Assembly: GCF_000026545.1 (NCBI RefSeq) | Contig: NC_011601.1 | DNA from: Escherichia coli O127:H6 str. E2348/69 | GTDB taxonomy: Bacteria > Pseudomonadota > Gammaproteobacteria > Enterobacterales > Enterobacteriaceae | Reading direction: 5' to 3' (one strand) | DNA length: 64,000 nt | Shown: in pieces, positions 62,788 to 64,000 of the stretch | Numbering within the stretch: the first letter of the stretch is position 1 | Layout of the letters: every line of letters begins with the position of its first letter | The notes under the pieces: model-generated | Seen by the model: only the letters and a program-made list of their open reading frames with translations | What the model was told of the DNA's origin: nothing | Database searches by the model: none | Translations under genes and position numbers: made by a program

Positions 62788-64000
62788 ATGACAGTAAAAA
62801 TTTCTGGCGTGCTTAAAGATGGCACAGGAAAACCAGTACAGAACTGCACCATTGTGCTGAAGGCCAGACGAACCAGCAGCACGGTGGTGGTGAACACGGT
62901 GGCCTCTGAAAATCCGGATGAAGCCGGACGTTACAGCATGGATGTTGAGCATGGTCAGTACAGCGTCACCCTGCTGGTTGAAGGTTTTCCGCCTTCACAT
63001 GCCGGGACCATTACCGTCTATGAAGGTTCCAGACCAGGTACGCTGAATGATTTTCTCGGTGCCATGACAGAGGATGATGTCCGACCGGAGGCACTGCGTC
63101 GTTTTGAACTGATGGTGGAAGAAGCGGCGCGTCACGCTGAGGAGGCGAAGAAGAATGCCGGAGAGGCGGAGACGTCCGCGAGGAATGCCGGCATATCAGC
63201 CAGTCAGGCAGAAGAGAGCGCTGCAAATGCTGACACTTCAGCAGGGGATGCATCGGAGTCAGCCCGGCAGGCGGCAGAAAGTGCAGCCGCTGCAAAGCAG
63301 TCAGAGGAGGCGTCCTCGTCCTCGGCCTCTGCGGCTGCTCAAAAAGCCAGTGAGTCATCACAAAGTGCAGCAGATGCTGAGTTGTCAAAAAAGACGGCAG
63401 AAAGTGCAGCCGGTAATGCAGCCAGGGATGCAACGACCGCAACAGAAAAAGCCCGGGAGTCAGCAGAAAGCGCACAGTCAGCGGAACAAAGCAGGATAGC
63501 GGCGGAAGAAGCCGTAAACCGAATCCCGACCGTGGTGGGGCCTCCCGGGCCAAAGGGGGAACCGGGGCCCGCGGATCCTCAGGGGCCGAAGGGAGATAAA
63601 GGAGAGCGTGGCGACACCGGCCCGGCAGGGGCAACCGGTGAAAGGGGGCCGAAAGGTGACAGGGGAGAGCGGGGAGAGACCGGTCTGACGGGAAATGCAG
63701 GTCCACAGGGTCCAAAGGGAGATACCGGTGCGGCAGGCCCGGCAGGCCCACAGGGACCGAAAGGAGAAACAGGTGCGGCTGGCCCGGTGGGGGCAACCGG
63801 ACCTCAGGGACCGAAGGGCGACCCGGGGGAGACACAAATACGGTTCCGTCTGGGGCCGGGAAACATTATTGAGACAAACAGCAATGGCTGGTTCCCGGAT
63901 ACAGATGGCGCACTCATCACCGGACTGACCTTTCTTGACCCCAAAGATGCCACACGGGTTCAGGGGTTTTTTCAGCATTTGCAGGTCAGGTTTGGTGACG
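62788..64000 (+). CDS. side tail fibre protein (Stf-like), 3' end beyond window; contains collagen-like Gly-X-Y repeats
   Basis: ATG 62788 ([12 protein letters not shown]...); open to window end; [11 protein letters not shown]... tract about 63530-63830. Not in the ORF track because no stop is reached. Confidence 0.8.

Follow-up and report, generated by a model that had tools for sequence, protein, structure and literature searches.

The window, a 64,000-nucleotide stretch of Escherichia coli O127:H6 str. E2348/69, ends inside an stf-like side tail fibre gene of the EPclA type (62788..64000, + strand), recognised from its translation, the RefSeq CDS, its Pfam families and its identity with a copy in EDL933. 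The reading frame starts with an ATG at 62788 and stays open past the window end. In the full record the product has 425 aa and the gene ends at window-equivalent 64065, 65 nt past the window, with the final 21 codons and the stop occupying window-equivalent 64001-64065. RefSeq carries the CDS as WP_000216481.1, a 'prophage tail fiber N-terminal domain-containing protein'. Three Pfam domains are found in it, phage_tail_N (PF08400, PfN), Collagen (PF01391) and Phage_fiber_C (PF06820, PfC); there is no Phage_fiber_2, the distal domains in Pfam being limited to Collagen and PfC.

The PfN match covers residues 1-133 of the 134-position model (E 2.2e-67). The first 94 residues (62788..63069, +) form an N-terminal collar (StfN/PfN) domain, which phmmer aligns with the 'Tail fiber protein' of PDB 9E7M/9MGH (E 7.5e-48; 82/94 identical, 87%) and which, judging by this similarity, would be the portion that docks the fibre onto the tail. 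There follows an Ala/Ser/Glu-rich alpha-helical coiled coil, made up of PCoil and the end of PfN (aa 101-246, 63088..63525, +). Heptad and periodicity analysis gives 21 heptads without a break, Ala occupying the two core registers in 71% and 76%, and a period-3.5 power of 4.5 against 0.24 in shuffled sequences, where 0/2000 shuffles were as high. The PCoil between PfN and the collagen-like (Col) domain takes up aa 134-250 (117 aa). With 62% Ala/Ser/Glu over aa 101-250, the preliminary description was right to place a coiled region of this composition ahead of the collagen tract. Beyond the tract lies a C-terminal PfC knob (aa 351-414, 63838..64000 and on to window-equivalent 64029, +), where PF06820 is matched over its full model length (E 4.6e-35).

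All best matches of the fibre in a PHROGs search are tail fibre families. Inspection of the translation revealed no signal-peptide-like hydrophobic stretch at the N-terminus and no anchor motif in the protein. An exact-sequence look-up of the 425-aa protein in a collection of 15 billion proteins gave no hit. Matches to the fibre occur at 4 places in the E2348/69 genome. Coverage of at least 80% of the protein is reached in 141 phage records, most of which belong to Stx1a/Stx2a-converting lambdoid phages. The gene had been called a side tail fibre from its sequence, and its place after J and lom, the 87% match to the Stf collar over 94 aa and the EPclA domain order all support that name.

Prophage context

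The prophage begins with ompW and an integrase gene (window 18791-20605), the preceding 18.8 kb being chromosomal backbone. The prophage is integrated at ompW: the gene beside the integrase is intact, and the far end of the prophage, about 53 kb off, has a pseudogene fragment of the OmpW family. This fragment is at 18846-18986 of L001, whose position 10368 corresponds to window-equivalent 64067, and the window stops about 8.6 kb short of it. The mapping between window and RefSeq coordinates was verified by means of the tRNAs. In the tail region the gene order is H-M-L-K-I-J-lom-fibre-PfC89, then nleA, nleH1-2 and nleF.

A consensus scan places a terminator-like hairpin with a T-run at the end of the lom moron (62740..62779, +). 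It has a 13-pair stem with 7 GC pairs and the tail TTTTATTGGT, and the hairpin itself ends 19 nt before the fibre ATG. Terminator-like hairpins with T-runs in fact stand on both sides of lom, at 61988-62007 and 62740-62769. Since they bracket lom, expression of the fibre presumably needs antiterminated late transcription through the moron.

Just outside the window is an 89-aa ORF (L001 10368-10637, window-equivalent 64067-64336), named 'tail fiber C-terminal domain' in RefSeq and sitting where lambda has tfa. It begins 1 nt past the fibre stop codon (TGAcATG) and encodes a 27-aa N-terminal segment followed by a second PfC, 35% identical to that of the fibre. Pfam returns only a PfC match for it, and no tail fibre assembly family. 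The exact protein is present on ~1,000 contigs, and the EDL933 version is 91% identical. Two 494-aa proteins, P0010 and P0022, look like fusions of the fibre with the 89-aa protein, and might have served as Rosetta-stone evidence. Both arise by a 1-nt deletion in a T6 homopolymer within PfC (63969-63974); they are not designed fusions, and the deletions are probably mutations or sequencing errors. Programmed frameshifting at the T6 run was also rejected, since the run does not form a slippery heptamer in the appropriate register and is followed by CAG, a common codon.

No solved relative of PfC emerged from a search of PDB sequences. An exhaustive HMMER scan with PfC retrieved no more than 48 representative clusters, for the most part nearly identical fragments from E. 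coli; weak multi-repeat matches to proteins with tandem bacterial Ig domains (Big_7) are a lead only. An AF2 monomer model of PfC is of low confidence (pLDDT 55).

Several other features of the prophage were recorded. The 3' end of the small PfC ORF with its hairpin terminator (AAAACCGGAGTCCGGCTCCGGTTTTTG) is seen at L001 10566-10704, 11342-11500 and 14847-14986, outside the window, the ORF 3' end recurring twice more and the terminator once more. These copies bracket nleA and an integrase pseudogene and precede nleH1-2/nleF, and it looks as if effector cassettes have been inserted or exchanged by recombination at this sequence. Downstream of a Q antiterminator gene, ARAGORN finds three adjoining tRNA genes with CAT, TTT and TCT anticodons (window 34730-34970), at the position that ileZ-argN-argO occupy in Stx phages. 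RefSeq annotates two of them (Ile and Arg), leaving the middle one (34807-34882) unannotated. An inserted ISEc13 transposase separates the tRNAs from a DUF6645 gene (window ~35111-36484), and the prophage has two different Q-family antiterminator genes (window ~28810-29331 and ~33845-34534); these coordinates were converted from the RefSeq annotation. The tail module is a mosaic (window 51061-51912 versus L001 2190-2531): gpM and the Stf collar resemble those of lambda, a similarity not seen in the sequence of the major tail protein. The best PDB matches of the major tail protein are an immunoglobulin-like domain protein and other tail proteins, mainly over its C-terminal part. It has no sequence match to lambda gpV, which is one of the two collar contacts in Ur-lambda.

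The collagen-like tract and its length

The collagen-like (Gly-X-Y)33 tract occupies aa 251-349 (63538..63834, +), and was delimited by triplet parsing, a shuffle test, Pfam Collagen and comparison with solved collagens. It consists of 33 successive triplets (99 aa) ending in GPKGDPGET. The longest run of Gly at a period of three is 28, compared with a maximum of 7 and a mean of 2.7 in 5000 shuffles of the same protein. The fibre scores 56 bits against Pfam Collagen, where the cut-off is 27.2 bits, and in a PDB sequence search the tract aligns with solved collagens, BclA being among the matches. Pro fills the X position in 15/33 triplets (45%) and Asp or Glu in 12/33 (36%); the Y position is Lys or Arg in 11/33 (33%), Thr in 8, Ala in 6 and Gln in 4. 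Cys, Phe, His, Trp and Tyr are absent from the X and Y positions of all 33 triplets. At 0.286 nm per residue, a triple helix of 99 residues is predicted to be ~28 nm long. The earlier reading of about 100 residues of uninterrupted Gly-X-Y stands as regards extent, 99 aa in 33 triplets. It fails on 'uninterrupted', because triplet 5 is Asp-Pro-Gln, starting with Asp263 instead of Gly, and Gly therefore comes first in 32/33.

The tract had also been put forward as a likely site of length variation, and a comparison of repeat numbers in relatives bears this out. Among 120 homologue cluster representatives the tract ranges from 0 to 38 triplets, with 9, 15, 19 and 37 as common classes. The O157 PV15-279 and EDL933 copies have 37 triplets, that of strain E2863 has 36 and that of E2348/69 has 33. 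Differences from close relatives are in-frame indels of 36 nt and 9 nt, always of whole triplets and at short direct repeats. In DNA and protein alignments the O157/EDL933 copies differ by 36 nt (4 triplets) at a junction that maps to 63637..63654; the difference sits near 63645, between two GGGRCCGARAGG (Gly-Pro-Arg/Lys) units. TRF finds internal DNA repeats with a 45-nt unit, present twice (63697..63787), and within this region a perfect 9-nt tandem, CGGCAGGCC, in 2.1 copies (63731-63749); E2863 lacks exactly one 9-nt CGGCAGGCC copy. The pattern of indels is consistent with slippage in frame, or with recombination, between short direct repeats.

The Gly263Asp allele

The single departure from Gly is the codon GAT (63574..63576, +), which encodes Asp263 at the Gly position of triplet 5 and was characterised by triplet parsing, 60-mer searches and alignments. 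DNA alignment with relatives attributes it to a G-to-A change at 63575. Position 263 is Gly in 4/4 aligned relatives, and there are no non-Gly triplets among 111 tract-bearing homologue representatives; the single further case that was flagged looks like a parsing artefact or a frameshifted fragment. When the surrounding 60-mer was searched for in 5,426 complete E. coli genomes, the exact GAT version was found only in 3 O127:H6/E2348-69 assemblies. A further 597 records were 1 or 2 bases off, and the Gly (GGT) version was exact in 370 records. Misassembly is ruled out as the source of Asp263, three separate assemblies of the lineage being 100% alike, and since these assemblies agree, a sequencing error is also unlikely. 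Judged from the sequences, Gly263Asp is lineage-specific and private to the E2348/69 strain, and it is the sole new detail of this analysis.

Asp263, in place of an otherwise invariant Gly, could compromise the helix. Among the Gly replacements compared in collagen model peptides (Ala, Ser, Arg and Asp), Asp was the most destabilising (PMC10765305). In Scl2, Gly substitutions near the nucleation domain hinder folding far more than distant ones, which slow folding and do not abolish it (PMC10765305). Between Asp263 and the PfC knob there are 28 perfect triplets, and the coiled-coil clamp is four triplets away on the other side. Because 28 triplets separate the site from the nucleating knob, the effect of the substitution, by analogy with Scl2, would probably be a local kink or a protease-sensitive spot beside an existing hinge, and not a global failure. 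A stronger proposal is that Gly263Asp is a natural lesion of the osteogenesis-imperfecta type, which unwinds the triple helix locally near the hinge, impairs or re-tunes the flexibility of the side fibre, and marks a first step of functional decay in which the host keeps the nleA/nleH/nleF cargo. We regard this as possible and rather unlikely. The allele also offers a natural test of Gly substitution in a collagen which lacks hydroxyproline and has its nucleation site at the C-terminus.

Interpretation and comparison with known systems

The region very probably encodes the shaft of a trimeric EPclA-type side tail fibre belonging to a lambdoid prophage of EPEC E2348/69. Three chains would be joined by the coiled coil with its Ala core and, at the C-terminus, by the PfC knob. 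Nucleated by PfC, the 33-triplet tract would then zip up into a collagen triple helix free of hydroxyproline, to which Pro in X and charge pairs between acidic X and basic Y residues would lend stability. The product would be a thin rod of ~28 nm, hinged to a coiled-coil rod of ~16-20 nm. We infer that the N-terminal collar domains dock the fibre on the E2348/69 prophage tail just above its tip, as in lambda Stf, and that the distal PfC knob is the cell-binding, receptor-contacting end, perhaps jointly with the 89-aa PfC-only protein, whose translation is coupled to that of the fibre; the consequence of Gly263Asp given above is likewise of this kind. The lambda docking model would be only partly transferable, because the major tail protein has no gpV match. 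Since short direct repeats make up the tract DNA, deletions and duplications that keep the frame would alter the rod length, by ~0.86 nm per triplet, between related prophages. The starting points of this interpretation are the domain architecture, homology, composition, length variation and sense-frame selection seen in the gene itself; the trimer, the triple helix (Tm 42 °C), nucleation by PfC and the dumbbell shape would carry over from a family member that is more than 90% identical.

Two long ORFs run antisense to the fibre gene, exactly where the preliminary description had noted them and as spurious as it had supposed: 63011..63835 (-, 274 aa) and 63478..63978 (-, 166 aa). Both have start codons, and with such lengths one or both might be real genes that overlap the fibre gene, a proposal to which we give almost no credence. 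Neither they nor two off-frame sense ORFs have a Pfam family match or a RefSeq annotation, and the antisense translations are Pro/Leu/Arg-rich mirror images of Gly/Ala/Glu codons. The phase of the longer ORF is without a stop from 63011 to 63866 and that of the shorter is stop-free from 63478 on; both are open because TTA, CTA and TCA are lacking in the Leu-poor, GC-rich repeats. Substitutions relative to the O157 copy cluster at third positions of the sense frame (23/37). The antisense ORFs are therefore spurious, as they have no family match and the substitution pattern suits the sense frame. Off-frame products are found in public protein collections, P0136 for example opening with the +1-frame peptide of 63695..63928. 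This is a matter of annotation hygiene, since the tract yields long false ORFs on both strands and some sit in public databases as 'proteins'.

The collagen-like protein might instead serve the host cell, acting at the bacterial surface as an adhesin or as a virulence factor in the manner of Scl1/Scl2 or BclA. Bacterial collagen-like surface proteins are known, BclA is itself among the PDB matches, the gene adjoins the virulence cargo lom, nleA, nleH and nleF, and Ghosh et al. left a host-side role open (PMC3368898). However, the protein begins with a lambda Stf collar domain in place of a signal-peptide-like stretch, it is without an anchor motif, and its best PHROGs matches are tail fibres throughout. 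In addition, the gene is part of the late tail operon and is preceded by a terminator-like hairpin, the consensus scan showing no promoter-like site on the same strand. A host-cell function is very unlikely. Another alternative is that the gene is a decaying remnant, in which Gly263Asp, as an osteogenesis-imperfecta-type change, blocks a proper triple helix, there is no working fibre, and the prophage is kept mainly for its effectors. The privacy of Asp263 to the O127:H6 lineage among 5,426 genomes, the invariance of Gly across 111 tract-bearing relatives and the rank of Asp as the most destabilising of four Gly replacements in model peptides (PMC10765305) are in keeping with this, as are the ISEc13 insertion, a pseudogene in the early region and the pseudogene fragments strewn downstream of the fibre. 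Against it, the ORF is unbroken, with 94% identity to copies that look functional, and the tail genes H to J, the integrase and the excisionase are all annotated as intact. Asp263 is also at the end farthest from PfC, with 28 perfect triplets on its C-terminal side and the coiled-coil clamp on its N-terminal side, and in Scl2 Gly substitutions far from the nucleation domain slow folding without abolishing it. We therefore think decay to a non-working remnant improbable, though it is partly compatible with the EPclA-type side fibre as an account of what the gene was.

Overall, the observation in the preliminary description is essentially confirmed and its interpretation supported, the one correction being the single Gly-to-Asp interruption. 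The collagen-like stretch is real and already published, in a feature family that has been annotated and biophysically characterised, and its length polymorphism is likewise known, having been tabulated in 2012. Because the collagen fibre and its length polymorphism were described and tested biophysically in 2012, the finding itself gives no new biology. Its relevance lies in the role of side tail fibres, which make adsorption faster and influence the host range of lambdoid phages, the vehicles by which genes for Shiga toxin and type III effectors pass from one E. coli strain to another. How far the fibre reaches is set by the collagen tract, roughly 0–33 nm over relatives.

The collar of Ur-lambda gpStf (PDB 9E7M, 9MGH; PMC12617516) is 87% identical over 94 aa, and its gene likewise comes after J and lom. 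Ur-lambda gpStf is a trimeric hinged fibre with a coiled-coil proximal rod, as in an EPclA-type fibre, and gpM is conserved. On the lambda tail the Stf collar domain touches gpV and gpM, each trimeric fibre being connected to three such domains by flexible linkers (PMC12617516). Lambda Stf lacks both a collagen tract and PfC; distally it is a gp37-like six-chain coiled coil with a receptor-binding domain that binds OmpC, and tfa comes next. In contrast, the distal part of the E2348/69 fibre is collagen and PfC, the 89-aa PfC-only protein comes next, and Pfam finds no Stf-type gp37-like shaft or Pf2 repeats in the fibre and no Tfa family in the downstream ORF.

Among other collagen-like proteins, EPclB, a tail protein of the short-tailed 933W/Sp5 Stx phages with reported YaeT/BamA recognition, shares the PfN, PCoil, Col and PfC modules, but its first Col domain has a conserved G-X-P-G-G-P-X-G interruption and not a Gly substitution. 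Streptococcus pyogenes Scl1/Scl2 and Bacillus BclA have, as here, a hydroxyproline-free (Gly-X-Y)n triple helix beside a globular trimerisation/nucleation domain, and a strain-variable tract length as in the relatives of the fibre. Unlike the E2348/69 fibre, they are cell-surface proteins with signal peptides and anchors. Of the Scl-like features, inspection of the translation shows no signal peptide, N-terminal variable trimerisation domain or cell-wall anchor, the N-terminus being a phage collar. Scl2 has a lower content of Pro in X, and it is nucleated by its N-terminal V domain, whereas the fibre has its PfC at the C-terminus.

The closest comparison is with EPclA, for example ECs2717 of Sakai and Z6027 of EDL933 CP-933P, with which the fibre shares the PfN-PCoil-Col-PfC architecture (PMC3368898). 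The Sakai protein is a trimer whose Col domain is a true triple helix with a Tm of 42 °C in the absence of hydroxyproline (Ghosh et al. 2012, PMC3368898). Its PCoil is an independent trimeric coiled coil that melts at ~52 °C, PfC is a trimerisation module which nucleates refolding of Col, and the molecule has the form of a dumbbell of 55–62 nm, hinged where the coiled coil meets the collagen, the 111 Col residues accounting for ~30 nm (PMC3368898). The role as a fibre was considered by Ghosh et al. to be strongly suggested yet unproven, a host-side role not being excluded there (PMC3368898). Three differences are apparent. The Col domain in E2348/69 is 99 aa (33 triplets), outside the lengths of 63, 78, 81, 111, 114 and 144 aa tabulated for EPclA by Ghosh et al. 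2012 (PMC3368898); it has one Gly-to-Asp change that is absent from every relative examined; and the host is EPEC O127:H6, where those of EPclA are EHEC. In other respects the agreement is close. The E2348/69 protein has PfN, PCoil, a single Col domain and PfC at more than 90% identity, with a PCoil of like length (~116 aa in EPclA), the same X/Y preferences and the GP(Q/P)-GPK-G(D/E) motif. The EPclP table of Ghosh et al. gives Pro 48% and Asp/Glu 36% at X, Lys/Arg 31% at Y, and no Cys, Phe, His, Trp or Tyr (PMC3368898), and the tract has these residue preferences. The 437-aa EDL933 copy is identical at 409/437 positions (94%) with one 12-aa gap, and lies in the same syntenic J-lom-fibre-PfC89-…-nleA context as the fibre of E2348/69.
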